Below, one piece after another: positions 265-63,455 of a DNA stretch of 64,000 nucleotides. How positions within the stretch are numbered: position 1 is the first letter of the stretch; every line of letters starts with the position of its first letter. Source of the stretch: a virus. A model generated the notes under the pieces. That model saw only the letters and a list, made by a program, of their open reading frames with translations, was not told the DNA's origin and searched no databases. The DNA is taken from positions 1 through 64,000 of the IMG/VR virus record IMGVR_UViG_3300021356_000011, one strand, 5' to 3'. Both the position numbers and the translations under genes were made by a program.

Positions 265-3075
265 ATGAAGAGTTGGAAATACGAAAAAGACACCAGCACA
301 GGTGAGGTTTACGCTGTCTACCACAGTGTTCCTATCTTCAAAGAGCATACTGGGTCAGATGGGACGAAATATACCCAGGAATTGCTAGAGGCTATTGCTG
401 ACAACAACAACGACAGGATCGAAGAGACGGGTGACTACTGCCCTATCGTTGGTTGGCATACTCCATCAGACAATGATCCATCCAAAGACCCACCAATTAT
501 TGGGTTTGCTGAGAACTTTCGCGTAGAGAAGTTTGGTAAGAAGCAACCCAAGTGGTGTATCTATGCGACATTCAAGATCCGCAAGGACAGGCATGACTAC
601 TTTCGGGACCATCCTCGCCGTAGTGTTGAGATCTGGCCTGAAGATAAACCTGAGAATCGGTATATCGACCCTATTGCGGTGCTTGGTGCTGAAACCCCCA
701 GGCAGGACCTAGGCTTGGTCTATAGCAAGTCTGCGGCAGGAGAAGAGTCTTACATGTACTCTTCTGTCGCTGGTGGCGGGAATACTTATGTGCCTGGGGA
801 GGTGCAAAGGAACAGTAGTGATGAGGGTTATGACGCTGAGCTTTGGAACCATAGGGACATCCAAGAGGCCCAAGAGTACGATTCAGCAAAAACCAGCCAA
901 AGCCAAATTTCTGCAACTCGCAGATTAATTGACCAAATGCATGGTTGGGAGGAAGGCTCAGTAAACGCAGACATTGGCGGGGGTCGTTATGACAAGTATA
1001 CAAATGCGATGAAAGAAGAACACGGCGTCACTAGTCATGTCTATGACCCATTTAATAGGGATGACGAGCATAACGCCAAGGTAGCGTCAATAATTTCAGA
1101 CGGCAAGTCAGACACTGCTACTGTCAACAATGTTTTAAATGTAATCAAAGAGCCGGAAATCAGAGAGCATGTAATAAAGCAAGCAAAAAACGCAATCAAG
1201 GATGATGGGTACGCTTACTTTCTTATACACGTTGGGAACAAGAGCGGGGTAGGCGGTTCTCCAGAGGGGACAACTCAATGGCAAGAAAACCGTTACCCTG
1301 AAACTTACATGGAAGAAATAGAAAAGCACTTTGGAGATGTAAAAAGAAAAGGCAATCTAATCATTGCCAAAAAAGACAGCGAGTCTTTATCGAAGCAGCA
1401 GTATGACAAGCCAGGACCAAAAGATCCTCGCAGAACTCCTGCTCCCAAGAAGGACAGGGTCAAAGGCAGTAGCAAGAACCCCAAGGGATCTGCATCTAAA
1501 GCTAACGAGAAGATAGAGGTTAGCGACAAGACTGAAGCGAGTCTTAAGAAAAAGATGGAGACTCACAACAAGTCTGACAAAGGATCCAAGGCAACCATCG
1601 GTGCGTTGAAGAGCGTCTATCGCAGAGGTGCTGGAGCGTATAGCACAAGCCATGCACCTAACATGTCTAGGCATGGATGGGCCATGGCGAGGGTTAATGC
1701 ATTTTTAAAGCTGCTTCGTAGTGGTAAGCCTGACAATTCAAACTACACCCAGGACTATGACCTGCTTCCGAAGGGTCATCCCAAAAAGTCTAAGAACTCA
1801 AAAGGTGGCACAGCTATGGAATATGCAAAGGACGAAGAGGGTCAAGAGCCTGATAAGAATTACGCAACACTTGCCGCAGCCGCAGCTCCTTTTGTTGCTG
1901 ATCTCGTTAGCGGAATGGTGAGTGGTGGTGGCGACAAGAACGCTAAGAAGACTGGACCTAGACCAATTAGAAAACCTAGAGCCAAGGGCTTTAAGTTTGA
2001 TAAAGACGAGATGCCCCAGGACGTTCCTGGGGATGACGATGTTTTGGATGGAGATGATGAAATGGCATTAGACCAGCAATCCGTCCAGCAAATTGTTGAA
2101 GGACTTAAGCCTACTATCATCGACATCGTACAGGAAGAAATTGCTTCCATCGTCGGTGATCAAGGCATGGGTCCAGAGGACATGCTGGAAGATCAAGAGG
2201 TCGAAGTTGTTCCTGACGAAGAAGTCGAGGAAATGCTTGACGAAGAACCTGAAGAAGGTCGCATGGCTGAAGAGCCTGAAGAAGACGAGGAAGAGCCTGA
2301 GCGTAATGCGAAGGAAGACGAAGACGACCCTGAGAAAAATGCCAAGTGCGAATACGGCAAAGAGATGTTCGCAAAGATGGCAGAAAAGCATCGTCTTTAT
2401 GAGAAGGATGCGGATCACAAGGGTGCTTCTCAGTATATGGCTTCCATGGAAGAGGCGGATAAAAACGCAATGGATTCATACATGAAAAGCGAAAAGGCTG
2501 AAAGCCACGAGAAAGAGGCTTACGGTAAATGCTCTGACTACGGCAAGGACATGAAAGAGTCTTACAGCAAAGACAGTGAAGTTGCCGAGGCAGATAAGTA
2601 CCGCAAGGAACTGAAGCAGGAAGCTGACAAGTATTCCAAGCTTCAACAGCAGTATTCAAAACTTCAATCAGAACTGGTTGAAGCTAAGGATCAGTTGACT
2701 GAAGTTCGCAGGAGTGAGCGATACCACAAGATCGCTGATCGCTTGTCTAATCTCGAAGCTGAAGGTTACTCCTTCGACAAAGAGAAAGAACTTGAGTTCT
2801 GCATGCAACTGTCGGATGAACTGCGAGAAGAACATCTTGCAGAACGCATTCCACAGCAGTATGCGAAGTGCCCAGTTGGTGCCCCAATCCCAGTCGAGGA
2901 GAGCGAAGAGCTTAAACCGATTGAGCAGAAGAGCATCAAGTACAGCCGAGCAGCAAACCTTGCTACTCAGAAACTGCGTGCCCAAGGCAATAAAGGCGTA
3001 AGCTTTGACAAAGTCTTGAAGCACATGTGCGATAACGATACGGATGAGTGCCCCTCCGTAGAAGACCTGAAGTAA
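265..3075 (+). CDS. Prohead protease (Mu I-like) / scaffold polyprotein with inserted SAM-methyltransferase-like domain and a basic conserved head domain
   Basis: N-terminal protease motifs PIVGWH, RRSVEI, AVLGAETP. Insert with DIGGGRYD and NNVLNVI. Domain LKSVYRRGAGAY..SH..WAMARVNAFL (DUF5824-like). Acidic coiled-coil C-terminus. Lies upstream of decoration and capsid genes. Start ATG 265 is conserved in copy B. Confidence 0.8.
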   Translation: MKSWKYEKDTSTGEVYAVYHSVPIFKEHTGSDGTKYTQELLEAIADNNNDRIEETGDYCPIVGWHTPSDNDPSKDPPIIGFAENFRVEKFGKKQPKWCIYATFKIRKDRHDYFRDHPRRSVEIWPEDKPENRYIDPIAVLGAETPRQDLGLVYSKSAAGEESYMYSSVAGGGNTYVPGEVQRNSSDEGYDAELWNHRDIQEAQEYDSAKTSQSQISATRRLIDQMHGWEEGSVNADIGGGRYDKYTNAMKEEHGVTSHVYDPFNRDDEHNAKVASIISDGKSDTATVNNVLNVIKEPEIREHVIKQAKNAIKDDGYAYFLIHVGNKSGVGGSPEGTTQWQENRYPETYMEEIEKHFGDVKRKGNLIIAKKDSESLSKQQYDKPGPKDPRRTPAPKKDRVKGSSKNPKGSASKANEKIEVSDKTEASLKKKMETHNKSDKGSKATIGALKSVYRRGAGAYSTSHAPNMSRHGWAMARVNAFLKLLRSGKPDNSNYTQDYDLLPKGHPKKSKNSKGGTAMEYAKDEEGQEPDKNYATLAAAAAPFVADLVSGMVSGGGDKNAKKTGPRPIRKPRAKGFKFDKDEMPQDVPGDDDVLDGDDEMALDQQSVQQIVEGLKPTIIDIVQEEIASIVGDQGMGPEDMLEDQEVEVVPDEEVEEMLDEEPEEGRMAEEPEEDEEEPERNAKEDEDDPEKNAKCEYGKEMFAKMAEKHRLYEKDADHKGASQYMASMEEADKNAMDSYMKSEKAESHEKEAYGKCSDYGKDMKESYSKDSEVAEADKYRKELKQEADKYSKLQQQYSKLQSELVEAKDQLTEVRRSERYHKIADRLSNLEAEGYSFDKEKELEFCMQLSDELREEHLAERIPQQYAKCPVGAPIPVEESEELKPIEQKSIKYSRAANLATQKLRAQGNKGVSFDKVLKHMCDNDTDECPSVEDLK
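2062..3075 (+). CDS. Probable nested in-frame scaffold protein (Mu Z-like), MALDQQSV...
   Basis: GGAG 8 nt upstream of in-frame ATG 2062. Copy B has GGAGG 7 nt upstream of the equivalent ATG 62475, where homology resumes. Confidence 0.55.
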   Translation: MALDQQSVQQIVEGLKPTIIDIVQEEIASIVGDQGMGPEDMLEDQEVEVVPDEEVEEMLDEEPEEGRMAEEPEEDEEEPERNAKEDEDDPEKNAKCEYGKEMFAKMAEKHRLYEKDADHKGASQYMASMEEADKNAMDSYMKSEKAESHEKEAYGKCSDYGKDMKESYSKDSEVAEADKYRKELKQEADKYSKLQQQYSKLQSELVEAKDQLTEVRRSERYHKIADRLSNLEAEGYSFDKEKELEFCMQLSDELREEHLAERIPQQYAKCPVGAPIPVEESEELKPIEQKSIKYSRAANLATQKLRAQGNKGVSFDKVLKHMCDNDTDECPSVEDLK

Positions 3076-3113
3076 GCGGGCCTTTTAGGTTTTAGCCACT
3101 ATAGGAGATTGAC

Positions 3114-3509
3114 ATGGCTAATACGTTTAGTTTCAAGGCTGGGGGGAACATCTTGCCTAGCCGAATCATCAAGTTGTCTGATGCTTTCGAGGTTCAGCAA
3201 GCTGCCGCTTCTGGTGATGACTTGCTTGGCGTTACTGCTGAAAGCACCAAGGACGCTCCTGGCCTGACTGGTGCAAGCACCAATCATGCTGAATCAGGCG
3301 ATCCAGTCCAATACTTTGGTCCTGGCGAAGTCTGCTTGGTAGAGGCTGGAGAAGCCTTGACTGCCCCTGCACTTTGCACTGCTGACTCTGTTGGTCGTGC
3401 TGTTGCTGCTGCTACTACTGAATATGCAGTCGTTCGTGTTATCGAAGACGCAAGTGCAGCAGGAGAGTTGGTTAGGTGCTTGGTTAGCGACCTTGTTTAC
3501 GTTCCCTAA
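3114..3509 (+). CDS. Capsid decoration/cement protein (DUF2190-like)
   Basis: 131 aa, Ala/Gly-rich, VEAG..ADSVGRAV pattern; located between protease and MCP; SD AGGAG. Confidence 0.7.
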   Translation: MANTFSFKAGGNILPSRIIKLSDAFEVQQAAASGDDLLGVTAESTKDAPGLTGASTNHAESGDPVQYFGPGEVCLVEAGEALTAPALCTADSVGRAVAAATTEYAVVRVIEDASAAGELVRCLVSDLVYVP

Positions 3510-3558
3510 CCATTAGCTGTTTTGGACTAACAGAGAAAATTTGTACGGAGATTAAAAA

Positions 3559-4608
3559 ATGGCTAGTGCGCCAGGACAATTTAATACCTACGTTCCGAGT
3601 ACGGAATCGACGAATAATCTGATTGCAGATTTCAGTCGTAATCCTGATAAGTTTCGTTTGGCAGAATGGTGCCAGTACGTTCCCGTTGAGAAGAACAAAG
3701 GCTTCTTCACTGAAATGACAGTGGAGCAAGCTGGTCGTATCATCAACGCTGATGGCGATGACATGCGATGGGCAGATGGAACGGAGGCTCCTCGCCAATC
3801 GTTTGGTCTGGAAAACTTCGAGTTCAAGCCATACGTTACTGAGCGTTTCGTATCTGGTTTTGAACTGGGTGAGATGGCAGCAGGTCAAGCAAGCTGGGAC
3901 GTTCTCGCTCAGCATGCTCGCATTCATGCTCAACGCATGATGACCCTGCGAACCGTCAAGGCTGTTGCAATCGCTGGTACTGCTGGCAGCTACCTGTCAG
4001 CCAACCAAGTTGACATTGCATCGGCTCCTGCTGACCTCAACATCTCAGGCAAACTGGATGTTGCTACTTCTGCCAACATGGATATCAAGCGAACCTTGGA
4101 TTACTCTGCTGAGTTGATCTACCAGGGTACTCTTGGTGCTGTTGGACAGGACGACCTTTGCGTGGTCATGAACCCTCTTACGGCTCGCCGCTTGTCGGTT
4201 ACCCAAGAGATTCGTGACACCCTCAAGCAGTCTCCTTTCGCAATGCAGATCGTAGAGAATCAGCTTGGCCCAGCGAATAACTGGGGCTTGCCTGCTCAAC
4301 TCTACGGTTACAACATCGTCTGCGAAGACGCTGTTAAAGTGACCAGCATCAAGGGTGCTACCGCTGTACGAGACTATGTCTTGGCTGATGGTGTTATCTT
4401 TGTTTGCAGTCGCCCAGGTGGACTGGAAGGCGTCGAAGGATCTCCTTCGTTCTCGACTTTCCAGACCTTCTTGAAGACTGAAATGCTGGTTGAATCCAAG
4501 CATGACCAGGACAACAAGCGACATGTTGGTCGAATCATCGATGACTTCGATGTTCGCATGGTTGCTCCGCTGTCTGGTGTTCACATCAGCAACGCATTGA
4601 CTGCATAG
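3559..4608 (+). CDS. Major capsid protein
   Basis: 349 aa after scaffold and decoration genes; HK97-like segment VVMNP..ARRL...LYGYNIV; SD GGAG; followed by a terminator. Confidence 0.8.
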   Translation: MASAPGQFNTYVPSTESTNNLIADFSRNPDKFRLAEWCQYVPVEKNKGFFTEMTVEQAGRIINADGDDMRWADGTEAPRQSFGLENFEFKPYVTERFVSGFELGEMAAGQASWDVLAQHARIHAQRMMTLRTVKAVAIAGTAGSYLSANQVDIASAPADLNISGKLDVATSANMDIKRTLDYSAELIYQGTLGAVGQDDLCVVMNPLTARRLSVTQEIRDTLKQSPFAMQIVENQLGPANNWGLPAQLYGYNIVCEDAVKVTSIKGATAVRDYVLADGVIFVCSRPGGLEGVEGSPSFSTFQTFLKTEMLVESKHDQDNKRHVGRIIDDFDVRMVAPLSGVHISNALTA

Positions 4609-37507: not shown

Positions 37508-37814
37508 CGAATTCATACGAAGGCATATGCAGATAAACATGCAGAAGCTTGAAGAAGAAGCTAGGAATTTGATTCAGGCACGCTTTTTTATTGAAGCTGT
37601 TATCAGGTGTGGTGGTTGGCTTGAGATACATGACGAACACATTTTGATTTGCGATGACGGTGATAATTCTGTCAGCGATGAAATGATAGAGTCGTTCAAA
37701 TGTCTCTGGCCTTATGTACTTTACATCTTTAACGAGCAAGATTTAGAAGAGTATGGCGAGGAAGACGGAAGAGTGGAAACCTTCGACAGTTCAAGAGGCG
37801 GTTGGTCATCTTGA
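37395..37814 (+). CDS. Hypothetical protein
   Basis: ORF bridging TerS and TerL. Confidence 0.45.
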   Translation: MELQMQPELMIQYLQAGVKVDWMKLRDLQFEVNSQISSEFIRRHMQINMQKLEEEARNLIQARFFIEAVIRCGGWLEIHDEHILICDDGDNSVSDEMIESFKCLWPYVLYIFNEQDLEEYGEEDGRVETFDSSRGGWSS

Positions 37815-39225
37815 GCGTCAATTAGAACGTATGTATTTCACGTTCCAACCTCGACCTGACAAGGTTGAAGAGTGGGACATGCAGACAAGCTTCTACAACT
37901 CAAGACACAAAGGCATTACGTTTTTACTGGGAGGGAATGGAGCAGGGACAACAACACTGACGCTTGCAAAAGCAGTTAAGTTTCTGCTTCGAGACCAGCC
38001 GCCACCTCGACCTGCAACTCCATTTTGGATCATCTCGGAAGGTTATCCGATGGTCATGGACGTTGCTTGGAACGAGAAGATGTGCGGGAGGGGAATGTTA
38101 CCAGAGGAAGAAGTGCAGTGGGACAAGGTTGATTGGTATAAGCCTAATCAGAACTGGCCCTTTCGTATTCCTCTGAAGCCTTGGCCTGGGCACGATCCAA
38201 ACAACTACTGGGTGATTGAGCTTAAGTCTTATGATCAGGGTCGATCAAAGATGCAGGCTTCATCTATTGGTGGTTTTGTTTTCATTGAGCAATGTCCATT
38301 CTCCTTGATCGAAGAGGTGCTTCGTGGGTGCCGAGACTATAATTTCCCAGGTGCTAAGCTTGCTGAGTTTACTCCTATTGATCCTCATCTATCTCGCCCA
38401 CTCGAAGACATGATCAATAACGGTACGCTGCCAGAAGACTGGGCTGTGTACTACTGCAATACAAAGTGTGCTGTAGAGGCAGGTCATGTAGACAAAGCTT
38501 GGTTTGACGAGTTCTTCGGGATGGTTTCCGAAGAGATGCGTGAAGTCAGAATGCGTGGTGCATTCGCAAGCTTTGAAGGTCTCGTTTACCCTACGTTCAA
38601 TCCCCGCATCCATACAGATTCTGATCTAATAGACAGCTTCACAGATGGCATGTACCACTATCGTGCAATCGACTGGGGTAGTGGTCCTGAAAATGCTTTT
38701 GTTTGCTTGTGGGCGGCAAAGGATTCTGTGGGAACGTGGTACATTTACGACGAGTATTACAGCACCGATCAGAACATGACCTACATGGATCATGCGGATC
38801 GGATTTACAATAAGCACCCTTGGCCTAACGATGCTTGGCATGGACCTACATACGGTGACCCTGCATCTCCAGGCTTGGCTCGATTGTTTACACAGTCAGG
38901 CATTCCAATTGTGGGTGCTAACAACCAAGTGATTGAGGGTATTGAAACTGTAAGGGTCGCTTTGCAGCTAAACAACGGCGACCCCAAAGTGGTGATCGAC
39001 AGAGATCGATGCCCTAATTTAATTCGTGAACTTCAAACTTATGTCTGGGAGAAAAGTAAAGGAGGCAAGTTCACTAGGAATGCAGCACCAAGACCATTGA
39101 AGAGAGACGATCACTCTTGCGATGCGTTGAGGTATTTACTTCATACGAATAGCAGTGCTGCTGGTAAAGGCTCGGTTACGGGAGGGAAGATCAAGCCTAA
39201 GAACCGCAAGAGGTTCATCAACTAA
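37753..39225 (+). CDS. terL: Terminase large subunit
   Basis: ATPase-like N-terminus (GGNGAGTT, KSYDQGR, FTP); RNase H nuclease motifs AIDWG, GDPA, DDHSCDALRY. Confidence 0.88.
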   Translation: MARKTEEWKPSTVQEAVGHLERQLERMYFTFQPRPDKVEEWDMQTSFYNSRHKGITFLLGGNGAGTTTLTLAKAVKFLLRDQPPPRPATPFWIISEGYPMVMDVAWNEKMCGRGMLPEEEVQWDKVDWYKPNQNWPFRIPLKPWPGHDPNNYWVIELKSYDQGRSKMQASSIGGFVFIEQCPFSLIEEVLRGCRDYNFPGAKLAEFTPIDPHLSRPLEDMINNGTLPEDWAVYYCNTKCAVEAGHVDKAWFDEFFGMVSEEMREVRMRGAFASFEGLVYPTFNPRIHTDSDLIDSFTDGMYHYRAIDWGSGPENAFVCLWAAKDSVGTWYIYDEYYSTDQNMTYMDHADRIYNKHPWPNDAWHGPTYGDPASPGLARLFTQSGIPIVGANNQVIEGIETVRVALQLNNGDPKVVIDRDRCPNLIRELQTYVWEKSKGGKFTRNAAPRPLKRDDHSCDALRYLLHTNSSAAGKGSVTGGKIKPKNRKRFIN

Positions 39226-40231: not shown

Positions 40232-40507
40232 ATGAGAGTCAAGATACTATCGAAGTGCTGGACATTTATAAGAGTCAAGGATTTGTACACAGAGGGAGGG
40301 GCTTATGGTCAGATAGAACATCCAGGCAAGAAAGGGAAAACCCTTAAGGTGGATGATTCTTTGACCAACCGTCATGAACTAGAGATTATCATCCATGAAT
40401 TCTTACATGGGGCTGATTGGTCTAAAGACGAAGAATGGATTGAAGAAACGTCAGAAGACCTGTCTCGTTTTTTGTGGAGATTGGGATACAGAAAATGCGA
40501 GTCTTAG
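40232..40507 (+). CDS. Small HExxH metallopeptidase-like protein
   Basis: LEIIIHEFLHG..W...EE. Confidence 0.6.
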   Translation: MRVKILSKCWTFIRVKDLYTEGGAYGQIEHPGKKGKTLKVDDSLTNRHELEIIIHEFLHGADWSKDEEWIEETSEDLSRFLWRLGYRKCES

Positions 40508-42811: not shown

Positions 42812-45800
42812 ATGTCTATCATCGTCAACGGCAAAGAGTATCCAGACGAGCGTTCGGTCCCAGAGCAGTATCGAATGCAGACCCAGATGGGAACACGGCA
42901 GCGAGATCCTGGGAACTTCAGCCCAGACCTAGCTCCCAATGTAGGTCGCAGCGTATTACCGCATGTGACTACGTTCTCAGGCATGATGTCTACTCTTGCC
43001 AGGACTTATCGTCAGCATGACGAGGCGATTAGGCACAATAAGCACAACGCAAATATGATGCGTCGTGACCCTATGATTATGGGTCCACTGTTTGCTCGAC
43101 AGATGGCAGTGGCTTTGCTCCAATGGCAAGTGCAGCCAGAGGATAGTAGCGATGAGAAGCAGGTGCAGGTCGCTAAAGAATTGACCTTCATGGTTTCTCG
43201 CATTCCTCGGTTCCGAGAATACCTTCGTAACTTGATGGAAGCAGTTTGGTATGGTCGATATGGCATTCAAAATGTTTGGGGGTTCACTAGGGACAGTCGC
43301 GGTGTTCGTTATCGCACTGTTGTTGATTGGGTTCCCGTCAATGGTGACAAACTTTTGTTTCGTTATGATGATGGGACTGGGCGTTATGACCATGATGAAA
43401 TTGGCGTCAAAGTCTCAGTAGCTCATGTCAAAGATGACATCTGGGCTGGTAAGCCTGACATTGAGTGGAACTCTGAAGGAACAGGTGTATTCCTTCGTCG
43501 ATGGGAGCGTAGTCGTTTAGTCGTCCATAAGAACTTCATGATGGACGGTGACTACGAGGATCCAACCACCGCAGGCATGATCCATGGTGTTGGTCTTCGA
43601 CACTTCTTGTATTGGTCTTGGTATCAGAAACAAGAGACTCTCGCTCAGCTTGCAGAAGTGGTTGAGCGAGCAGGTATGGGTTTCACTGTCTACACTTACC
43701 CTGCCGGTAATGCCCAGGCACGAGAAGAGGTCGAGCGTCTAGCAGAAGAGCAGGCACATAAGAATCAAATCGTGCTTCCAATGGAAGTGTCGAATCCTGA
43801 TGCCTACAGCATTCAACAGATCCCACCAAATACGCAAGGCATCATGGCTTTGCAGTCTTTGATTGATGACTACTTTGGTAGCTGGATCATCAAGTTCATC
43901 CTGGGTCAAACACTATCGTATCGAGCAGAAGCGGGTACGCCAGGAATCTCTGATCTGCATCGCGACAGCTTCTTGCAGATTGTGAAGTACGACAGTCTTG
44001 GTGTTGAAGAGACTGTCACCAAAGATCTGATTCGTATGCTGTTGATGTTCAACTTCCCTTCGTATCAGAACGTCAACTTCCAGTTCAAACTGAACACAGA
44101 AGAAGCAGTGCCATTAGAGAAACTGCAAGCACTGCAAGCTGCCTGGAGTATGGGGGCGAAGATTAAATCTGAAGACGTTATGGGTCTTATCGGATTGAAT
44201 GTCGCAGGTGCCACAGATCAAGCTCTCTACAATCCTCAAGTTCTAGCATCACTCAAAGAGTACGAGATGATGGAAGAGCAACAGGAGAAAGAAGAGGAGG
44301 GTGGTCAAGGAACGCAGATCACTGAAAGCCAAGACGAAGCGTTGGCTGCAATGCTTGGTCCTGTCATGCAATCAAAGAGGTACTCCAAATACAGCAATGA
44401 AGATAATTTTGATGTATTTGACGATGCTGATTTTGAAGGCAGTGCTGATGTTCCAATGCCTTCTACTGTCATGCCAACGGGAGAGCAAACAGAAGATCGC
44501 AAAGAGTTAAGGGATGAGTTTGATCCTAAGTTGGACCAAGTCAAGTCAGACGCCACTTTGCATCCAGAAAAGGAAGAGTTTTTCTCCGAGTCTAAAGTGC
44601 GTGACAATGATGGCAAGCTGCTAGTTTTGTATCACGGTACTCCGAATGGAAAATTAGTCCAGCATGACAGAAGACTTTCGGGAGATCCAGATTTAGCTTC
44701 GCATGGTCAAGGTTATTATCACACTGACAACTTAGATGCGGCGAAAGATTATGCTCTTAATAGCGACGGAACAGGGGAAGCGAATCCCGCCGTACATGCT
44801 GTCCATTTAAATATTAAAAATCCTTTTGATGTTAGCAAAGATGAGATTGATTCTAAAGACTTTATTAGTTGGTATAAAGGAACAACTGGGGACGCTGAAT
44901 CTGCGAAGAAGATGATGCAAAAAATTGATGAGATGTCATCTAACGCAGGAAAAATTCCTAGTGACTATGAAAGTCTTAAAGCTTTAGGTGGAGGCACTCA
45001 AAAATATCTTTCGAGATACTTGAGATCAAAGGGGTTTGATGGATTGAAAGCACAGGGCAGTCATGGGCGTCCTGGTCAGCGTTCGATAGATCACACAATC
45101 TACATGGCTTTCCACCCAAGTCAGATTAAATCGGTGAGCAATGTAACGCCATCTGGCGATCCAAGGATGGACTATGTCAAGGACGAGTATGCTAAGAAGA
45201 GCGAAAGCGGGAACTACAAGCCAACTAAGGGAATGATTGGCAATGCTAAGAGAGGCTTGGAACTACGCAAGAAGCACGAGAAGGGCGGGACCGCAGTAGG
45301 TGTTGCTCGTGCTAGAGATATTATAAATGGCAAAGACCTTAGCTTCTCTACCGTTAAACGGATGCACTCATTCTTTAGTCGCCATGCTGGGAACGAAGAG
45401 GGTGGTGAGGATGATGCTGGTTACATCGCATGGTTGTTGTGGGGTGGTGACAGTGGACGCAACTGGGCACGCAGTATTGTAGAGTCAGAGCGTAAAAACC
45501 AAGCTGGCGACGTTGACAATGAAGGTGATCCATCAGTCATTGATACGCCAGAGGAAGACCTGACGGAGCCTGCTCCACAAAGAAGAGGTGAGGACAGCCT
45601 CTTCGGTGCCATTGCCTCTGGTGCGATGGAGGGTGCAACTCGTGGTGCTGCTAGAAGACTGACTGGTCAACAGGGATTCCAGTTTGCTAAAGATGAAGAT
45701 GATGATGGTCTTCGCCAGGGCGGTTTGTTTGACGATGTGCCTGTTAAGGATGACTACATCCCCAAGAAGAAAGAGCCTAAAGCACCTAGCAACGAAAGGC

Positions 45801-48800
45801 AGGGCAGGCTTTTCTCTGAGGATGATCTGCACAATCTTCAGCATGATCTTGAACAAAGAAAGATGTTCGAGAAGAAGAATGATCCTGATCGTTACATGAT
45901 GGATGAGGATGATCGCAAGGAACTTGAGGAGTATCTAAGTAAACAAGAAGAAGGTGATGCCAAGTTCTCTGATTCTGAAATAGAGATGAGGGAAGATCTT
46001 GAGCGAGATCTTAAGAGATACGCTAGTGTAATGCTTGAGAAGTATGGCGATGATGATGAAGACTATGCTGCTGCAACTTTCTTTCTTAAGAACTTAGATC
46101 GTTTTAAAGATTCAGAAGAGTTGCTTTCTTACATAGAAGAGTTTGGTACTGGATTTGATTACGACGAGATAAAAGATAAATGGGACCGAGGAATCTATCA
46201 GATATCTGACCTTGGCGACTCTCCAAGTGAATTGATTGAGAAAGCCTTGGTTCATTTTGGTGAGACAGAAAATCCCAAACAGGCAGGGTATATCTTGCCT
46301 GATGGAACTATGCTTAACTTTGGCTCTGATGGAGTTAGGCATGAAGACCATCGCAGTATTGGTGTTGCATATAAGGAGCATCCTCACCCTGGAGATAAAG
46401 GGAATGACCCAACGGCTTACATGAGCCATTTCATGGATCAGACAGGTGCGATTAGGTGGATGCCTTCAGCACCTGGACTTTCTTTGCATTCTGCTCCAAC
46501 CAAAGCTCAGATGGATACGATTAATAGAAGTCTTGAACTTATGGGCTCAGAAGGTGAAGAGTTTTATTGGGACAGGGATGAGCATGACCCTAAAGGTGAA
46601 AAGGGATATCCGTACAAGACAACGATGACTGGAGACAGTCTCTATTCTCTGCACGACGCTATCAATAGTGATTTTGACGAGGAGTTGATGCAAGAGAATG
46701 AGGATTACAGCAAAGAACCAGAGCGTAATGCTATGGGTGCTGGTCCTCGTGATCACTCTCCTGAAGACTTTGATGTCACCGGAAAGCAGATCAATGGACA
46801 AGCTACAGCCAACAGAGGCACAATGCCCAAGCAGGCAACTCAGTCTTCTATGCCATCTAAGGCAGACAAGGGATCTGTATCTACTAATCCAGTAAGCAAA
46901 ACTGGAATGTCTTCCGATGCTACTCGCATGGATAGAGGTGCTTCTCTAGCCAACATGCGTGACAAGTTCATGAAGTATCGCAAGACCAAGCTGATTGAGA
47001 TGCTTCAGCCATTTGTCCAGGAAGATCCTGACTTCTCGCTGACAGATGCACAGGGCAAGAAGCGTAGGACCAGCCTATTCAAAGCCGACAAGTATTCTCT
47101 TGCGAACACTCTTGCGAGTAAGTATGCCGAGGGTGAAGACCCTTATGCGAGAACTAAACCGCTTGATAGGCATATCGATGGAGTAATTGAGTCTTACGTT
47201 GGTGAAGGCATGGGTGCTGAAGATAAGAAAGACTTATCAGACAGCCTGTACAACACTTGGCGGGATGTGCATAGTGAACATCAAGCTGACGTAAGTGATT
47301 TCAATAAAAACTTAAACAGCTTAGCTCAGCAGTTTGGGTACGAAAGAGCAGAGGGTGCTTTTACTCGAAAGGCTAGGAGTGCAGAAGACGTTGATGCCAT
47401 AAAGCGTCTAGATGAATCTCAGCAGGATTTAGTTAGAAACACAATTAGCTCTGCCGGGAAGCTTGGCCTTAAGGTTTCAGGAGGCGATGACATTGAGAAG
47501 GTCCACTCTGCCCTTATGCATGGTCATCAAAAGCCACTTGGAAAAACGCATGATGATATTTGGAAAGAAGTCATACAGCGAGAAAGGCTTGACGAGTTCT
47601 CAAAAGAGCAGAATGAAGAGGAAGAAGTTCCGCCGATCACAGGAGAAGAAGCGGAGTCTTTACTTGAAGGTCAGAGAGCGGCTACTGAGCAACAGCTAGA
47701 GGAGTTTATCGAAGGCCAGGGTGCTGAAAAGCCAACTCCATCAGCAAATGAACCAGATGAGCCATATGGTTTGGAACCTACTGCTGATCCTGAAGTCCCA
47801 ACTATTAGAGTTGAAGGCGAACTTCCTGTGACAGTAGAGGAGAGCCCTTTAACTAAGATCACCGAATCTGCTTTAGGGGCAGAGAATATCAGGTCGTTCA
47901 TGAGGGGCATTGGTAAGGATCTGGGAGGCATTAGTGTAGAGCATAAAAGGCAATGGTTGGAAGCTAATGATATAGAGCCAAAGAATATTCAGAGTGAAAA
48001 GACTCTTAACTCAATGATCCGCAAATTCATTCGAGAGAAGGCTGAGTCTAAACCTGAAGAAGAGCCTACTCAGCAAGAGTTGTCATTGCAGCCAACCCCA
48101 GAGCCTGTCAAGCCAATCCAGCCTACGCAGGCACAGCTAGACATGGTTCAAGACTTGATCAAGTCGGAGGAGACTCCTGATAAGCTTCAAGGATTCATTA
48201 ACGAATTGAAGGGTGCTGCTGAGTCAGGTGATGCGAAGTCTCTCAATGACATCTTAGAAGAGCGTGATGAATTTGCTTTTGATAAAACCTTGGTGACTGA
48301 TCCAGAGCGTCTTGAGTCTCTCAATGTTTGGATCGACAGTATTGAACAGACTGCCAAGACTGGAGATATGGATGCTGTCAAATCTCTTGCTTCTGGTGAA
48401 GAGCCTGTCAGCATGAGGGCTCTGGATGAAGAGAAGGAAAAGCAGATAGCCCAAGGCCAGCAGGAAAGAGAAAAGCGAGCCGCTCAAGAGAAGCAGGAAG
48501 CAACCTTCCAGCAAAACAGGCAGCGATATTGGGATCAGGTGGGTGAAGAGGAGGGGATGAAGCGGATCCTTGACTTCATCGTATCTGATCAGGCACCTGA
48601 TAAGCTTGAGGGATTTGTCAACAAGCTAAAGGAAGCTGCGGATAGTGGAACTACAAGCGACTTAATTTCTGTTTTGGATGAGTGGGAGCAGACGGAAGAG
48701 GATATTGTTGATCCAGGAGTGAAGCAGGAAGATATCCCCCTGGAACGCAAAAACGATCTCAACGACTGGATAGGTTCTATTGAGGGGCTTGTCAGGTCAG

Positions 48801-49903
48801 GAGATATTGAAGCTGCAAAATCTTTCGCTCGTGGGGAGAAGCCAGTTGAGCTTCCAAGGCTAATTAAAGGAATCTCCAAGGAAACAGGTTTGGTTGAGGG
48901 CGAATTGACTGATGCGGAGAAGCTTGAGCAGCTTAAGCAGGATCAGGAAGAAAGAATAATTCAACGTCGAGCGAAGGCTAGAGCGGCATTTGAAGAGCAG
49001 GAAACCAAAGAACGCAATCAAACATTAAAAGAGCTTAAGGAAATGGCTTTAGATCAGAAAGCTAAAGCTGAGATGTTTGAAAGCAAAACTCCAGTGACAG
49101 CCGATGGGGGAAGGGTTAGCGAAAGCACTATTGATGAGTACCATGCCTCAGCATTGCCTCACTTGGACTCCAGCACTGTAGTTAAGATTGGAGTGGCAGG
49201 AGAGGATAGGGGTGCAATAAGGTTTAGCTCAGATGGTGCTGGAAGCTTTGTAATGGAACATGAGAAGCCTAATGGCGACAAGATCTACTACGATGCTAAG
49301 CAAGCTAAGAAGGCTTTAGGAAAGTCGTTCAATAAGATAGCAGGTCAAGCAATCCTACGAGACAACAAAGCTTGGGCTGGCAAGGCACTAATGGCGGGTC
49401 TTGTGACTCCAGATGCTGCGTCTAAATTAACTAAACCAGCAAGCCAAACCTACATGACAACTCAGATGAAAGCCAAGATTAATGAGGCAGCGATAACTGC
49501 CATGGCAAATCTTGGAACGTCAAATGGCGGCATCAATCTTGGTGACTATAGCAATACAAGGGATGCTGCTGATGCTGCCTTTGACAAGATGCGTGGTCAC
49601 ATGAATGACATCCAAAAGCCTGGAGGGTGGCTGGATACTCTGAAAGGTGCTGGGTTTGCTTACAACGACAAGGCTTCCGTTGCAGACAACTATGTCAACG
49701 GAATGCAGTATGTCATGGAGAAGGCAGGCCAGACAGGTTTTAGAGCCAGCAAGCAGAAGAATGCCGTCGAGAACATGCAGGGTGCAATACAGCATTTGTC
49801 TGAGCAATCTGAAGATGAAAAAGGGTGGAGCCCATGGGCAGTTGCTGGTGGAATCGGCATCTTAGCGGTACTTCTCTTGTTCTACTCGGTAATGAAGGAC
49901 TAG
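42812..49903 (+). CDS. Giant portal polyprotein: DUF935 (Mu gp29-like) portal + ADP-ribosyltransferase-like and further cargo domains + C-terminal TM
   Basis: Portal motifs RRDP.I...L.AR..AV, L.EAVWYG, G.GLR..LYW.W..K, ILGQTLS in the first ~480 aa. ART-like YHGT..G.G.Y.T.....A..YA..LNIKNP..GFDG..F.PSQIKS. Hydrophobic C-terminus. Confidence 0.85.
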   Translation: MSIIVNGKEYPDERSVPEQYRMQTQMGTRQRDPGNFSPDLAPNVGRSVLPHVTTFSGMMSTLARTYRQHDEAIRHNKHNANMMRRDPMIMGPLFARQMAVALLQWQVQPEDSSDEKQVQVAKELTFMVSRIPRFREYLRNLMEAVWYGRYGIQNVWGFTRDSRGVRYRTVVDWVPVNGDKLLFRYDDGTGRYDHDEIGVKVSVAHVKDDIWAGKPDIEWNSEGTGVFLRRWERSRLVVHKNFMMDGDYEDPTTAGMIHGVGLRHFLYWSWYQKQETLAQLAEVVERAGMGFTVYTYPAGNAQAREEVERLAEEQAHKNQIVLPMEVSNPDAYSIQQIPPNTQGIMALQSLIDDYFGSWIIKFILGQTLSYRAEAGTPGISDLHRDSFLQIVKYDSLGVEETVTKDLIRMLLMFNFPSYQNVNFQFKLNTEEAVPLEKLQALQAAWSMGAKIKSEDVMGLIGLNVAGATDQALYNPQVLASLKEYEMMEEQQEKEEEGGQGTQITESQDEALAAMLGPVMQSKRYSKYSNEDNFDVFDDADFEGSADVPMPSTVMPTGEQTEDRKELRDEFDPKLDQVKSDATLHPEKEEFFSESKVRDNDGKLLVLYHGTPNGKLVQHDRRLSGDPDLASHGQGYYHTDNLDAAKDYALNSDGTGEANPAVHAVHLNIKNPFDVSKDEIDSKDFISWYKGTTGDAESAKKMMQKIDEMSSNAGKIPSDYESLKALGGGTQKYLSRYLRSKGFDGLKAQGSHGRPGQRSIDHTIYMAFHPSQIKSVSNVTPSGDPRMDYVKDEYAKKSESGNYKPTKGMIGNAKRGLELRKKHEKGGTAVGVARARDIINGKDLSFSTVKRMHSFFSRHAGNEEGGEDDAGYIAWLLWGGDSGRNWARSIVESERKNQAGDVDNEGDPSVIDTPEEDLTEPAPQRRGEDSLFGAIASGAMEGATRGAARRLTGQQGFQFAKDEDDDGLRQGGLFDDVPVKDDYIPKKKEPKAPSNERQGRLFSEDDLHNLQHDLEQRKMFEKKNDPDRYMMDEDDRKELEEYLSKQEEGDAKFSDSEIEMREDLERDLKRYASVMLEKYGDDDEDYAAATFFLKNLDRFKDSEELLSYIEEFGTGFDYDEIKDKWDRGIYQISDLGDSPSELIEKALVHFGETENPKQAGYILPDGTMLNFGSDGVRHEDHRSIGVAYKEHPHPGDKGNDPTAYMSHFMDQTGAIRWMPSAPGLSLHSAPTKAQMDTINRSLELMGSEGEEFYWDRDEHDPKGEKGYPYKTTMTGDSLYSLHDAINSDFDEELMQENEDYSKEPERNAMGAGPRDHSPEDFDVTGKQINGQATANRGTMPKQATQSSMPSKADKGSVSTNPVSKTGMSSDATRMDRGASLANMRDKFMKYRKTKLIEMLQPFVQEDPDFSLTDAQGKKRRTSLFKADKYSLANTLASKYAEGEDPYARTKPLDRHIDGVIESYVGEGMGAEDKKDLSDSLYNTWRDVHSEHQADVSDFNKNLNSLAQQFGYERAEGAFTRKARSAEDVDAIKRLDESQQDLVRNTISSAGKLGLKVSGGDDIEKVHSALMHGHQKPLGKTHDDIWKEVIQRERLDEFSKEQNEEEEVPPITGEEAESLLEGQRAATEQQLEEFIEGQGAEKPTPSANEPDEPYGLEPTADPEVPTIRVEGELPVTVEESPLTKITESALGAENIRSFMRGIGKDLGGISVEHKRQWLEANDIEPKNIQSEKTLNSMIRKFIREKAESKPEEEPTQQELSLQPTPEPVKPIQPTQAQLDMVQDLIKSEETPDKLQGFINELKGAAESGDAKSLNDILEERDEFAFDKTLVTDPERLESLNVWIDSIEQTAKTGDMDAVKSLASGEEPVSMRALDEEKEKQIAQGQQEREKRAAQEKQEATFQQNRQRYWDQVGEEEGMKRILDFIVSDQAPDKLEGFVNKLKEAADSGTTSDLISVLDEWEQTEEDIVDPGVKQEDIPLERKNDLNDWIGSIEGLVRSGDIEAAKSFARGEKPVELPRLIKGISKETGLVEGELTDAEKLEQLKQDQEERIIQRRAKARAAFEEQETKERNQTLKELKEMALDQKAKAEMFESKTPVTADGGRVSESTIDEYHASALPHLDSSTVVKIGVAGEDRGAIRFSSDGAGSFVMEHEKPNGDKIYYDAKQAKKALGKSFNKIAGQAILRDNKAWAGKALMAGLVTPDAASKLTKPASQTYMTTQMKAKINEAAITAMANLGTSNGGINLGDYSNTRDAADAAFDKMRGHMNDIQKPGGWLDTLKGAGFAYNDKASVADNYVNGMQYVMEKAGQTGFRASKQKNAVENMQGAIQHLSEQSEDEKGWSPWAVAGGIGILAVLLLFYSVMKD

Positions 49904-59535: not shown

Positions 59536-59570
59536 TTTCAACTAAATTTCGCTTTCATGGATGATTGCAT

Positions 59571-62500
59571 ATGAAGAGTTGGAAGTACGAAAAAGACAAT
59601 GTGACAGGCGAAATCCTTGCTGTTTACCATAGTGTTCCTATTTTTAAGGAGCATACTGGGTCAGATGGTACTGAATACACCAAGGAATTGCTTGAAGCCA
59701 TTGCTGACAACAATAACGACAGGATCGAGGAAACTGGTGATTTCTGTCCTATCGTTGGTTGGCATACTCCATCAGACAATGATCCATCCAAAGACCCGCC
59801 AATCATTGGGTTTGCTGAAAACTTTCGTGTAGAGAAGTTTGGTAAGAAGCAGCCCAAGTGGTGCATCTATGCGACGTTCAAGATCCGCAAGGATAAGCAT
59901 GGATACTTTCGGGACCATCCTCGCCGCAGCGTTGAGATCTGGCCTGAAGATAAACCTGAGAATCGCTACATCGACCCTATTGCGGTGCTTGGTGCTGAAA
60001 CCCCCAGGCAAGACTTAGGCTTGGTCTACAGCAAGTCTGCGGCAGGGGAGGAGTCTTATATGTACTCTTCCGTTGCTGGTGGCGGGAATACCTATGTGCC
60101 GGGCGAGGTTGAGAAGAGTGCAAAAAAGCCTTCGGTAAAAGAGAGAAGAGCAGCATTTGGAGACAGCAAGAGAGTTAAAGCTCCAATCGTCCCAGAAGGC
60201 AAAGAACCAAATTCAAGAGATATTCGCAATCATACCTATGAAATGGTCAAAGCATTCGCTGATGCTTACCCGGTTGATGCGACTCTTAAAGAAGGTGAAC
60301 TTCCCAAAGAGGCAAAGAAAAAGGGAAGAGGAGTTCAACCGGGAGATAGAGTTGCTGTTAGAAGAAACCTGCATGAAAGCCACGCCAATTGGCTTAGGAA
60401 AAACCTTGGTGAAGAAAATTACCAAGAGCTTCTTGAAAGTGTAAAAGCTGACAGGATGGGTGTAACTCCTCAGACAATTCATTCAGCAGTTAAGGGTGGC
60501 AGTGCTGATTTGATAGGTGCTGGGGAAACTGACGAGCAGATTAAAAAGAATATAAGTGAGCTACACAGTACAAGCTGGGGCAATCACCCTCTGGTTCACC
60601 TTAGCGATGTTGATTTTGTTGTCCATGAACTGTCCAGATCAGATATAGCCAAGGGAGTTACTAATAAGAAACCCATGGCATCTGCTAGAGGAAGCTATGA
60701 GCATAGCAATCCTGAAAAGTTTAAGGACTTCCTTGAAAGAAATGCGGGTGATATCCAAGAGATTAGATTTAATCCGATGACGGATCATCACTTTGTTGAT
60801 CTCAATTCACATGCGGTCAAGGGTGCGAAGGAAGCTACCCTGTTCAATGATCGTGTCTATGCAACTGGCGTTGAGTACCTACCTCAAAAGGACTCTGACG
60901 GCTATGTGGCTTATCCGGATGATCCAGACGGCAAGGGTTTTTCTAGGATAGCAGAGGAGTCAGGAACCCTTCATAAGTTTAATAAGGAACAGTATGACAA
61001 GCCGGGACCAAAAGATCCAAGGCGAACTCCTGCTCCTAAAAAGGATCAGGTCAAGGGTAGCGACAAGAATCCCAAAGGATCTGCGTCCAAAGCCAATACT
61101 AAAATTGAGATAAGCGACAAGACCGAAGCCAGCCTGAAGAAAAAGATGCAGGAGCATAATAAGAAAGGCAAAGGCTCCAATGCAACTTTGGGTGCATTGA
61201 AAAGTGTTTATCGCAGAGGTGCTGGAGCGTACAGCAGCAGCCATCATCCCAAAATGTCTAGGCATGGATGGGCCATGGCAAGAGTGAATGCATTCCTAAC
61301 ATTGCTTCGCACTGGCAAGCCCAGTAACTCCAATTACAAGCAAGACAACGACCTGCTGCCGAAGGGGCATCCTAAGAAGTCTAAAAATAGCAAGAAGCAT
61401 GCAGGCATGATTGAAAGCTTGCAGAAATATGCAAAGGAGATGGGAATGCTTTCTCATGAAGAGCTTGGTGGTGAGGGATATACGCATGCTCATAAGTGGG
61501 GCTACCGCCCTAAGGCTGAACAATCTCAGAAGTATGCGGAAGCTGGGCGCCGAGCTTTCAATGAACCTCATGCTGCAACAGCTGAGATCGCAAGAAAATA
61601 TATTGAAGCGAATCGTGATCTCATTGGTGACGCTCACGCTCCTCGACAGATCTCGAAACTTGATCCATCAATTTCAAAGCGAATTGCCGCAGAATATATC
61701 TCAGGGAAGCATGACCCTTCTGACCCTAAGGTCATGAGAGCTTATCAGGCCATGGCAGATGAATCTGCCAAACAAATGCAAGCTTTGACTGATGCTGGCT
61801 ATAAGGTTGAGATGTACCCAGAAGGTGCGGAGCCTTACCCCAATTCGCAGGCGTTGATTGATGATCTAAATCAGAACAAGCACCTCTGGATCTTTCCTAC
61901 CGAAGATGGTTTTGGCGAAGAGCCAATTACCGATGAGGAAAGAAAGATCAACCCGCTGCTGCAAGACTCTGGGTTTAAGGATGCCAATGGCAAACCCATG
62001 CTATTGAATGACACCTTTAGGGCGGTGCATGACTTCTTTGGCCATTCGGAACTGGGCAATGCATTCGGACCTGTCGGTGAGGAGAACGCATGGCAACTGC
62101 ATAGTCGCATGTTCTCACCTGAAGCCCGAAGGGCCGTGACCACAGAGACTCGCGGTCAAAATAGCTGGGTAAACTTTGGACCTCACATTGTCAGAGAAGA
62201 TGGTAGCGTTCCGAAAAGGAGTGACCCGGACTTCAAGCCACTCAAAGATCGCCCATTTGCTGACCAGAAGATGTTTCTATTGTCAGACGACACTGTGTTT
62301 GGCACTGACGATCACGAAGGCGAGCCATTGGAGAAGATGCGAAAGAAAGGCCCGCGAGTCTTTAAGCTTCCTCCCAAGAGCAGGCCAAAAATGTCCAAGG
62401 AAGGCCAATATGCAAAATACGAAGAAACCGAGGATGGTCCTGGGTTGGATTCTTTATTAAATGGAGGAACTGACATGGCACTTGACCAACAGTCAGTCAC

Positions 62501-63455
62501 TCAGATTATCGAAGGCCTCAAGCCGACCATCATCGACATTGTGCAGGAAGAACTGCCAAAGATGCTTGGTTACGACGAGGCCTCTGATGAAATGATTGAT
62601 GACATGGATCAGGAGGAAATGCCTGAGGAAGAGCCTGAAGATGAACTTCAGGAAGAGCCTGAAGATGAGGTCTTGCGGGAAGAACCTGGGGACGAAGATG
62701 AAGACGAAGTTGAGCGGAATGCCAAATGCGAATACGGAAAAGAAATGTTCGCAAAGATGGCAGAGAAGCACAACTTATATGGAAAAGATGCTGACCACAA
62801 AGGTGCATCTCAATACATGGCATCCATGGATGAAGCTGATCGGAATGCTATGGGCATGTACATGAAGAGTGACATGCCGAGCAAGGAAGAGAAAGACGCT
62901 TACGCCAAATGCAATGAATGTGAGAAGAACATGAAAGAAAACTACAGCAAAGCTTCAGAAGGCAGCGAGGCTGATAAGTTCAGAAAGCAACTTGATGAGC
63001 AGGCTGACAAGTTTTCCAAACTTCAGCAGCAATATTCGAAGCTCCAATCTGAGCTTGTTGAAGCTAAGGATCAGCTGACGGAAGCTCGACGAAGCGAGAA
63101 GTATCACAAGATTGCTGACCGCCTCTCCTTGCTTGAAGCCGAAGGCTATGTCTTTGATAAAGAGCAAGAGCTTGAGTTTTGCATGCAGCTGAACGACGAT
63201 CTTCGAGAAGAACATTTGAATGACCGCATCCCCAGCAAGTACACGAAGTCCCCGAGTGGACAAGTTGTACCTGTTGAGAAGTCAGAGGTCATTACTCCTG
63301 TTGAGCAGAAGAGCGTCAAGTACAGCAAGTCTGCACAACAAGCAACTATCGCTTTGCGTTCCCAGGGAGCCAAAGGCGTCGATTATAAGTCCGTTCTCAA
63401 TTGGATGATTGAAAACGATACGGAAGTGTGCCCCACCGTAGAAGACCTGAAGTAA
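59571..63455 (+). CDS. Prohead protease / scaffold polyprotein, allele B with two different cargo domains
   Basis: Protease, DUF5824-like and scaffold parts match allele A; inserts at ~60111-60983 and ~61395-62474 are largely unrelated to allele A. Confidence 0.8.
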   Translation: MKSWKYEKDNVTGEILAVYHSVPIFKEHTGSDGTEYTKELLEAIADNNNDRIEETGDFCPIVGWHTPSDNDPSKDPPIIGFAENFRVEKFGKKQPKWCIYATFKIRKDKHGYFRDHPRRSVEIWPEDKPENRYIDPIAVLGAETPRQDLGLVYSKSAAGEESYMYSSVAGGGNTYVPGEVEKSAKKPSVKERRAAFGDSKRVKAPIVPEGKEPNSRDIRNHTYEMVKAFADAYPVDATLKEGELPKEAKKKGRGVQPGDRVAVRRNLHESHANWLRKNLGEENYQELLESVKADRMGVTPQTIHSAVKGGSADLIGAGETDEQIKKNISELHSTSWGNHPLVHLSDVDFVVHELSRSDIAKGVTNKKPMASARGSYEHSNPEKFKDFLERNAGDIQEIRFNPMTDHHFVDLNSHAVKGAKEATLFNDRVYATGVEYLPQKDSDGYVAYPDDPDGKGFSRIAEESGTLHKFNKEQYDKPGPKDPRRTPAPKKDQVKGSDKNPKGSASKANTKIEISDKTEASLKKKMQEHNKKGKGSNATLGALKSVYRRGAGAYSSSHHPKMSRHGWAMARVNAFLTLLRTGKPSNSNYKQDNDLLPKGHPKKSKNSKKHAGMIESLQKYAKEMGMLSHEELGGEGYTHAHKWGYRPKAEQSQKYAEAGRRAFNEPHAATAEIARKYIEANRDLIGDAHAPRQISKLDPSISKRIAAEYISGKHDPSDPKVMRAYQAMADESAKQMQALTDAGYKVEMYPEGAEPYPNSQALIDDLNQNKHLWIFPTEDGFGEEPITDEERKINPLLQDSGFKDANGKPMLLNDTFRAVHDFFGHSELGNAFGPVGEENAWQLHSRMFSPEARRAVTTETRGQNSWVNFGPHIVREDGSVPKRSDPDFKPLKDRPFADQKMFLLSDDTVFGTDDHEGEPLEKMRKKGPRVFKLPPKSRPKMSKEGQYAKYEETEDGPGLDSLLNGGTDMALDQQSVTQIIEGLKPTIIDIVQEELPKMLGYDEASDEMIDDMDQEEMPEEEPEDELQEEPEDEVLREEPGDEDEDEVERNAKCEYGKEMFAKMAEKHNLYGKDADHKGASQYMASMDEADRNAMGMYMKSDMPSKEEKDAYAKCNECEKNMKENYSKASEGSEADKFRKQLDEQADKFSKLQQQYSKLQSELVEAKDQLTEARRSEKYHKIADRLSLLEAEGYVFDKEQELEFCMQLNDDLREEHLNDRIPSKYTKSPSGQVVPVEKSEVITPVEQKSVKYSKSAQQATIALRSQGAKGVDYKSVLNWMIENDTEVCPTVEDLK

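Follow-up and report, generated by a model that had tools for sequence, protein, structure and literature searches.

The locus considered here lies in a window of 64,000 bases (bases 1-64000 of the 74,605-bp linear IMG/VR record IMGVR_UViG_3300021356_000011), and raises the question of how head proteins that carry strings of unrelated domains could be turned into separate proteins. Two genes are concerned, one encoding a protease fused to a scaffold and represented by two alleles, A and B, and the other encoding a 2363-aa portal protein. An earlier note on this DNA had proposed that both proteins carry swappable enzymatic cargo, which the head protease frees by cutting at a (Y/F/N)-x-K motif found at the domain junctions. 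Judging from sequence analysis, this interpretation is plausible and partly supported, being backed by several independent computational lines. With the motif narrowed to Y-x-K/R, we consider it fairly probable that the head proteins carry cargo and that the protease cuts at these sites, freeing the modules for ejection. The architecture of the proteins, the protease fold and its conserved residues, the motif enrichment, the coincidence of the motif with breakpoints and the movement of modules were all computed here. The protease-scaffold, portal, cement, capsid and terminase genes and their parts described below are on the plus strand.

The gene for protease, cargo and scaffold in allele A (256..3075, 939 aa; P0001) probably starts at the ATG at 265, and its relatives begin at MKSWKYEKD. 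The domain at its N-terminus (265..714, aa 4-153) has a predicted assemblin/T4 gp21 fold. In an AlphaFold2 (AF2) model of aa 1-175, based on 65 aligned family members, the predicted local distance difference test score (pLDDT) exceeds 90 for aa 4-150 and falls below 50 from aa 154 onwards, pointing to disorder after the fold. Structural comparison with 48,161 chains (VIA) placed T4 gp21 (5jbl, Z 8.5, root-mean-square deviation 4.2, 128 aa aligned), the varicella-zoster virus protease (1vzv, Z 7.9) and the human cytomegalovirus protease (8j3s, Z 5.9) as the top three, while Foldseek against the PDB yielded nothing at E 0.001 or better for the same model, with T4 gp21 at E 0.1. Residues H31, H68, S123 and E125 are unchanged in all 65 aligned members; the first three appear, from the alignment, to be catalytic-type residues, and S123 is the serine of the RRSVE motif singled out in the earlier note. 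Neither Pfam nor PHROG families matched aa 1-160 of either allele, no Peptidase S77/S78/S80, Mu-like_Pro or Phage_GPO match was obtained in Pfam for the N-terminal domain of the 65 members, and a PDB profile search returned coiled-coil matches only. The family is large, with at least 1195 relatives of the protease domain (50% identity clusters) in 1.84 billion representative proteins, most of them 450-630 aa long. On the DNA, the protease-scaffold gene is followed by that of the cement protein and then by that of the putative capsid protein. Given the modelled fold, we accept the N-terminal domain as a capsid-maturation protease of the assemblin fold from a family yet uncurated, in agreement with the identity proposed earlier.

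The linker between protease and scaffold has two slots, and close alleles differ in whether a slot is occupied and by which module. In cargo-less homologues of 523 and 584 aa, found on two related viral contigs, the scaffold follows almost directly after the protease. The first motif, Y156-S-K158 (721..729), stands in the disordered tail after the protease fold, and Y-x-[KR] occurs at the column just after the fold in 40 of 64 family members. In allele A, slot 1 (814..1401, aa 187-382) contains a methyltransferase-like module of 196 aa (Methyltransf_23, E 4e-5, 23.8 bits, which is below the gathering score of 27). Allele B, the diverged second copy of the gene (59565..63455, 1296 aa; P0002), has an unrelated module of 290 aa in this slot (60120..60992), with weak L5 gp82-like similarity that is also below threshold (26.5 versus a cut-off of 27). 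In a third allele with a 98% identical protease (P0004, 852 aa), slot 1 is empty: GEVERN is directly followed by DKPGPKD, and in the two alleles with an insert DKPGP comes after a final QY. The end of the slot is marked by Y383-D-K385 (1402..1410) in allele A, where the sequence common to allele B and P0004 restarts (DKPGPKD), and by Y477-D-K479 (60993-61001) in allele B. At the level of DNA, the similarity between A and B restarts at nt 1393, 3-4 codons ahead of Y-D-K.

Next comes a DUF5824-like basic domain (1411..1821; PF19141, 30.1 bits versus a cut-off of 25), which is common to alleles A, B and P0004 (88% identical in the latter). It is followed by Y523-A-K525 (1822..1830), the motif reading EYAK in A, EYSK in P0004 and KYAK in B. 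Slot 2 of allele B (61437..62408) contains a 320-aa module that matches only phrog_3170, a family without known function, and is bounded by Y622-A-K (61428-61436) and Y949-A-K (62409-62417). The same slot is short in allele A and low-complexity in P0004; at its end, ahead of the scaffold, stands NAK, YAK or QYAK. Further long members of the family have 350-590 extra residues between protease and scaffold.

All three cargo modules of the scaffold gene have counterparts in the portal tails of other phages, with identities of 42-56% and E from 1e-55 to 1e-100. In particular, the slot 1 module of allele A shares 56% identity with portal P0174 (aa 1630-1829), and the slot 1 and slot 2 modules of allele B are 42% and 54% identical to aa 1880-2128 and aa 1518-1808, respectively, of portal P0176. 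YAK directly precedes three of the portal-tail counterparts. Since such counterparts exist for all three modules, the cassettes move between the two carriers. Neither the protein atlas nor a phmmer search of PDB sequences was informative on slot 2 of B, slot 1 of A or the ADP-ribosyltransferase (ART) module of the portal.

The second carrier is the portal-polyvalent fusion protein (42812..49903, 2363 aa), where Portal_Mu and ART-PolyVal are found in one polypeptide, much as the earlier note had described a portal with unrelated domains appended. Its Mu-type portal core (42812..44380, aa 1-523; Portal_Mu at aa 81-457, E 8e-41) is 91-100% identical in close relatives that lack the ART module or carry other modules. 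The core ends at Y524-S-K526 (44381..44389), where relatives have KKYAK or KKYDK, and is followed by a tail of ~1840 aa. The tail begins with the ART module (44390..45187, aa 527-792; Pfam ART-PolyVal at aa 598-778, E 1e-16, 62 bits versus a cut-off of 31.2), which is missing from the close relatives P0154 and P0155 and from P0158, P0159 and P0161. At the junction with the next module stands Y793-A-K795 (45188..45196), with Y788-V-K790 just ahead of it; the relatives have E-x-Y-A/S-K-K-S/E-x-S-G here. The modules at aa 796-1298 (45197..46705) comprise a phrog_2859 domain (aa 803-900) and then a region that is replaced in relatives, and are followed by Y1299-S-K1301 (46706..46714) and EPERNAM, the relatives having Y-D-K-EPERN. 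Further tail modules with an internal duplication occupy aa 1302-2338 (46715..49825). The protein ends with a hydrophobic segment of ~22 residues, read from the translation (49826..49891, aa 2339-2360), and then MKD; by its sequence, the segment is likely a membrane anchor on the last portal module, unusual for a portal product. The C-terminal module is conserved in 13 relatives. A detectable similarity between portal aa 796-960 and the DUF5824 domain of the scaffold gene was not found, and an AF2 model of portal aa 330-1529, based on a 23-row alignment, was too poor for domain boundaries (mean pLDDT 41).

Among 110 long relatives of the portal (1300-4077 aa), the tails have differing domain sets, which include PF18823, PF18796, PF18905, SNF2 helicase, sigma-70, ParB and NUDIX domains. 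The tails of P0179-P0200 and P0279-P0284 carry sigma-70 region 2/4, SNF2/DarB-like helicase-methylase, ParB, NUDIX or ADP-ribosylating toxin domains. The tail domains of the relatives amount to a list of candidate effectors that uncultured phages may inject. Many portals are cargo-less, with lengths of 510-600 aa, and are encoded on 57-65 kb contigs. One 577-aa protein (P0264) was considered as a cargo-less close relative and rejected, as it ends in adaptor-like sequence and comes from a truncated record. The proposed swapping of domains on head proteins is borne out in both carriers, with slots empty or differently filled and portal tails varying among close relatives. The description of the cargo as enzymatic is supported for ART-PolyVal, the one module above a curated threshold; the methyltransferase-like and L5 gp82-like modules score below it.

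We then come to the motif. Every instance that had been listed was found at its place in the two alleles and the portal. Compared with shuffled sequences, Y-x-K occurs 17 times versus 4.7 in allele A and 15 versus 4.7 in allele B, and Y[SA]K 6-7 times versus 0.7 in the scaffold alleles; the observed values were reached by no shuffle. The rest of the proteome has no excess (25 versus 27). The expected enrichment over the rest of the proteome is therefore seen in both scaffold alleles, but not, by count, in the portal of the window, where Y[SA]K occurs three times versus 0.8 (shuffle fraction 0.05). When all gapped residue pairs were ranked over 150 family members, YxK came first (654 versus 177, z score 36) and YxR second; in the portal tails of the 110 relatives, YxK was the third most enriched pair (443 versus 283). 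The observed number of Y-x-K exceeds the expected one in 131 of 150 scaffolds and in 83 of 110 portal tails, while the portal cores of the relatives have no such excess. The consensus is [R/K]-Y-[A/S]-[K/R], and the narrowed motif can be written as Y-[A/S/D]-K, with Y-x-R as a further form. In the scaffold family, whose mean column identity is only 16%, the motif is conserved at about eight columns.

The other two variants did not survive. F-x-K and N-x-K have no consistent excess in these proteins and are not enriched in the families or among the other proteins of the proteome, and at breakpoints they reach 0.4-1.45 times the expectation, so that we rejected them as parts of the motif and retained Y-x-K/R. 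The element (P)ERNA(K/M) is a separate motif, seen as ERNAK/EKNAK at 2290-2350 and 62710-62730 and as EPERNAM in the portal at 46715-46735; it is common to the scaffold alleles and the portal tail and is lineage-specific, not occurring in more distant family members. The empty-slot junction ERN/DK of P0004 resembles this element.

Does the motif coincide with the places where modules are exchanged? We derived portal breakpoints from homology endpoints against 24 close relatives, bearing in mind that endpoints from related portals are not independent of one another. The three strongest clusters, at aa 530 (13 endpoints), aa 791 (nine) and aa 1302 (nine), lie at most five residues from Y524SK, Y793AK and Y1299SK, respectively. 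Thus all three Y[SA]K sites in the window's portal are at the three most recurrent breakpoints (three of six clusters, P ~0.002), and a fourth cluster, at aa 1448, is at Y1445AR. In an all-against-all comparison of 111 portals, Y[AS]K was no more than 8 aa away from a recurrent breakpoint in 41 cases versus 8.1 expected, and in the close clade Y[ASD]K was near 25 of 107 breakpoints versus 3.3 expected. The control motifs YxE, YxD, FxK, LxK, WxK and ExK reached 0.1-1.1 times the expectation, and NxK 1.3-1.45 times. Domain limits taken from hidden Markov models also suggest a place for the motif at boundaries, and the AF2 model of the protease puts one copy at the end of its fold. The coincidence predicted for homologous portals was therefore found at aa 530, 791 and 1302. 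As a general statement, the placing of the motif at domain junctions is plausible for Y-[A/S/D]-K, which is at breakpoints well above chance and above the controls, but most breakpoints are without it.

Taken together, these data are consistent with the following scheme, in which we infer the cleavage, the side of the cut, the retention and ejection of the cargo and the cargo roles. The locus would hold the head genes of a tailed, uncultured marine phage, with the Mu-type portal and the protease-scaffold serving as cargo carriers. Every prohead incorporates portal and scaffold, and whatever is joined to them would thereby be brought inside the shell. Most likely, the head protease would then cut at the Y-x-K/R sites. 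Known sites of this fold have the P3-x-P1 form, L/I-x-E in T4 and V/L-x-A for herpesvirus assemblins; by analogy, Y-x-K would be a P3-x-P1 site cut after lysine. Such processing would separate the protease from the rest, set every cargo module free and break the scaffold down into short peptides. It would also trim the portal tail as in Mu, whose virions lack the C-terminal 124 aa of the portal, a loss attributed to protease I (PMC11915804). The freed modules may remain in the head and exit with the DNA, and the putative membrane anchor on the last portal module would fit an ejected protein that inserts into the envelope. Twelve portal tails amount to ~2.4 MDa, which is in the range of known ejection-protein loads.

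Several observations weigh against this scheme. By count, Y-x-K is not significantly enriched in the window's portal (6 versus 5.3), and the family-wide enrichment partly reflects shared ancestry of conserved columns and not independent events. The breakpoint clusters at aa 499 and 905 of the same portal have no motif, and only about 19-25% of recurrent portal breakpoints are near Y-x-[KR]. Modules in more distant portals end with QYAT or QYAE instead of Y-x-K, and in a crude test of local hydrophobicity the Y-x-K sites were the same as other tyrosines, giving no sign of a linker. The likeness of the N-terminal domain to known proteases is middling, with Z 8.5 and a Foldseek E of 0.1; Pfam gave no protease family for it in any of the 65 members, and a tblastn search with it against 50,697 phage records gave no match and thus no cultured relative. 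Cultured Mu-like portals are only 23-30% identical to the one described here. Finally, ART is the sole cargo domain that could be confidently placed in an enzyme family.

In another reading, the fusions are packaged without being cut at the motif, Y-x-K/R being a structural or assembly element, such as a coiled-coil feature or a contact with the inside of the shell, as well as a linker signature that moves along with the modules, and the cargo remaining tethered or being processed elsewhere. Many copies of the motif lie inside the predicted helical, coiled-coil scaffold, the composition around Y-x-K is the same as around other tyrosines, and most portal breakpoints lack the motif. There are also precedents, as the N4 virion RNA polymerase and other large virion proteins are packaged unprocessed (PMC5512222). 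However, an element for scaffold contacts is not expected in 83 of 110 portal tails, nor does this account for the motif at the exact end of the protease fold and at both ends of a cargo cassette. A scaffold tied to 45-85 kDa of cargo and an active protease could hardly exit the prohead, and the P3-x-P1 shape of the motif matches the established sites of this protease fold. We regard packaging without cleavage at the motif as unlikely.

The motif could also mark recombination, with short conserved joints allowing cassettes to be exchanged in frame and the protein motif being a by-product. Module movement between genes is clear, the DNA of alleles A and B becomes similar again slightly before the Y-D-K that ends slot 1, and the junction peptides exceed a tripeptide (E-x-Y-A-K-K-S-E-S-G; Y-D-K-EPERN). 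Nevertheless, the strongest enrichment is in the scaffold part, where cassette exchange is not seen, and the motif keeps fixed columns there among members with otherwise little similarity. The flanks, moreover, vary from junction to junction, with Y-x-K alone in common. As an explanation that would replace cleavage, recombination seems quite improbable to us; the two are not exclusive, as a cleavage site kept at each module end also acts as a recombination joint. Cutting at the motif by a different protease, of the host or among the cargo, is very improbable: embedded metallopeptidases have been proposed as the usual processors of polyvalent proteins (PMC5512222), but neither the portal nor the two scaffold alleles gave a match to a metallopeptidase family, allele A and P0004 keep all motifs without the slot 2 module, and the motif is family-wide in proteins with this protease domain.

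The coiled-coil scaffold part of allele A (2062..3075, from M603) is dense in Y-x-K, the sites being spaced by 5-30 residues, which fits a breakdown into small peptides. In both Pfam and PDB profile searches, the C-terminal 340 aa matched coiled coils. A small open reading frame (ORF) in front of the capsid gene (3114-3509) was considered as the scaffold and rejected, since it resembles cement proteins of Mu-type heads; this leaves the C-terminal part as the sole scaffold candidate. A Shine-Dalgarno-like GGAG is located 9 nt before the internal ATG of allele A (2032-2064), and GGAGG (62445-62477) is 7 nt upstream of the internal M971, from which the scaffold part of allele B (62475..63455) starts. 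The site is kept in both alleles despite differences in the residues encoded there, and one relative has GGGAG at the same place. By analogy with Mu-like phages, whose protease gene contains a nested gene for the scaffold (PMC2628397), this suggests a nested gene here too, with the scaffold possibly also made alone from the internal ATG. If such a nested gene is real, the full-length, cargo-bearing form would be a minor product. Precedents for nested scaffolds are provided by lambda C/Nu3 and Mu I/Z.

How does this arrangement compare with known systems? T4 Alt is a packaged ADP-ribosyltransferase, and the head cleavage site of phiKZ-like phages is S/A/G-x-E. The T4 IP/Alt proteins and those of phiKZ and SPN3US are similar to the present case in the fold class of the protease and in a short motif, which here has an excess in scaffolds and portal tails but not in portal cores or other proteins. 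Unlike here, where cargo is fused to the portal or the protease-scaffold, their cargo consists of separate gene products with a short propeptide; P1 is glutamate in T4 and phiKZ, whereas the predicted P1 here is lysine and the protease matches no curated family. MuF polymorphic toxins and P1 DarA/DarB/DdrB are effectors carried into the host by the capsid, with variable parts on a constant targeting part. Their carriers are MuF or separately targeted proteins, while here the portal and the protease-scaffold carry several modules per polypeptide.

The head module of Mu is similar in its DUF935/Portal_Mu portal and cement protein, and Mu-like phages have a nested scaffold. By contrast, the portal tail of Mu has ~124 aa and no cargo domains, compared with ~1840 aa of modules here, the family of Mu protease I is not matched by the present protease, the genome here is probably ~59 kb, and no MuF (gp30) gene was found beside the portal in a scan of the larger ORFs nearby. 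The portal is followed by ORFs for small proteins of unknown function, a LamG protein and a beta-helix protein.

A further parallel is provided by the polyvalent proteins of phages and conjugative elements, which were defined to include portal and MuF fusions and ART-PolyVal and were predicted to be injected (Iyer et al., 2017; PMC5512222). The same study proposed that processing is mainly by embedded zincin metallopeptidases, and it observed assemblin-like peptidases only at C-termini (PMC5512222). In common with these proteins, unrelated domains of mosaic content, ART-PolyVal among them, are attached to a virion anchor, the fusion to portal and scaffold suggesting that they would be packaged. 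Three other hallmark families of polyvalent proteins (PF18823, PF18796 and PF18905) occur in relatives of the portal. The differences are that the protease is N-terminal, that cargo is placed between protease and scaffold, that no metallopeptidase was found and that the scaffold gene and the portal tail have a junction motif in common. The portal is therefore a member of the known class of polyvalent proteins, while the use of the protease-scaffold linker for cargo, the junction motif common to both carriers and the uncurated protease family appear to be new.

The presence of the junction motif in both carriers and across the scaffold family points to the prohead protease acting in trans. In its fullest form, the proposal is that an unannotated family of assemblin-fold protease-scaffolds reads a Y-x-K/R code, that in one lineage of uncultured marine phages effector cassettes bounded by this code shuttle between the portal tail and the linker, and that the prohead protease in trans, not an embedded metallopeptidase, releases them for injection; this we put forward tentatively, as somewhat short of probable. 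If true, it would provide a testable rule for turning giant polyvalent virion proteins into separate injected effectors, the step left open in 2017, a second carrier for cargo in the form of the protease-scaffold linker, and a defined specificity for a large unannotated protease family. The boundaries of mature effectors would become predictable in metagenomic phages, and the slot-and-motif design could serve to load chosen proteins into phage capsids. A cut after lysine is invisible in ordinary tryptic proteomics, which may explain why such sites have gone unnoticed.

The relation between the two alleles depends on the record itself. Its first ~15,000 bases are repeated from base 59306 to the record end (74605) in a collinear copy with 68-88% identity. 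The repeat contains the entire head-to-tail module, including the protease-scaffold, cement, capsid and tail genes in the same order, and alleles A (256-3075) and B are one gene in the two repeat copies. Allele B is present in two marine metagenome runs of different studies, and allele A is there too, at 100% identity. The stretch common to both alleles (nt 130-760) is fragmented into small unitigs. Since a unitig from these runs continues 195 nt past base 1, the record start is not a physical end. Most likely, the record does not represent one genome but joins two co-occurring strains through wrap-around or chimeric assembly, and the true genome size is probably about 59 kb instead of 74.6 kb. 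Alleles A and B are natural variants of one gene, whether or not they reside on one molecule. The earlier reading of two alleles thus holds in the sense of natural variants, but not in that of a single genome, as the diverged repeat and the fragmented shared part make two strains probable.

Some further genes of the window were assigned. The cement or minor capsid protein (3114..3509) has XM1_gp53 and Phage_cement matches below gathering score and matches phrog_673. The putative major capsid protein (3559..4608) is assigned by position only; no family match was found for it, and it contains no Y-x-K. The large terminase (37753..39225) matches PHROG terminase families with E 2e-22. Between terminase and portal region there is a gene for a metallophosphoesterase (40474-41193; phrog_221, E 9e-49). 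A 978-aa ORF at 54428-57364 has four copies of a 91-nt unit, 64-71% identical and spaced by ~700-740 nt, which encodes the repeated NVR-Y-NRAL-(S/T)A-E(V/I), and is probably a protein of repeated LamG-like domains. It adjoins the LamG protein (50654-51496) and the beta-helix protein (51861-53210), and the three proteins may be fibres or spikes encoded between the portal and protease genes.

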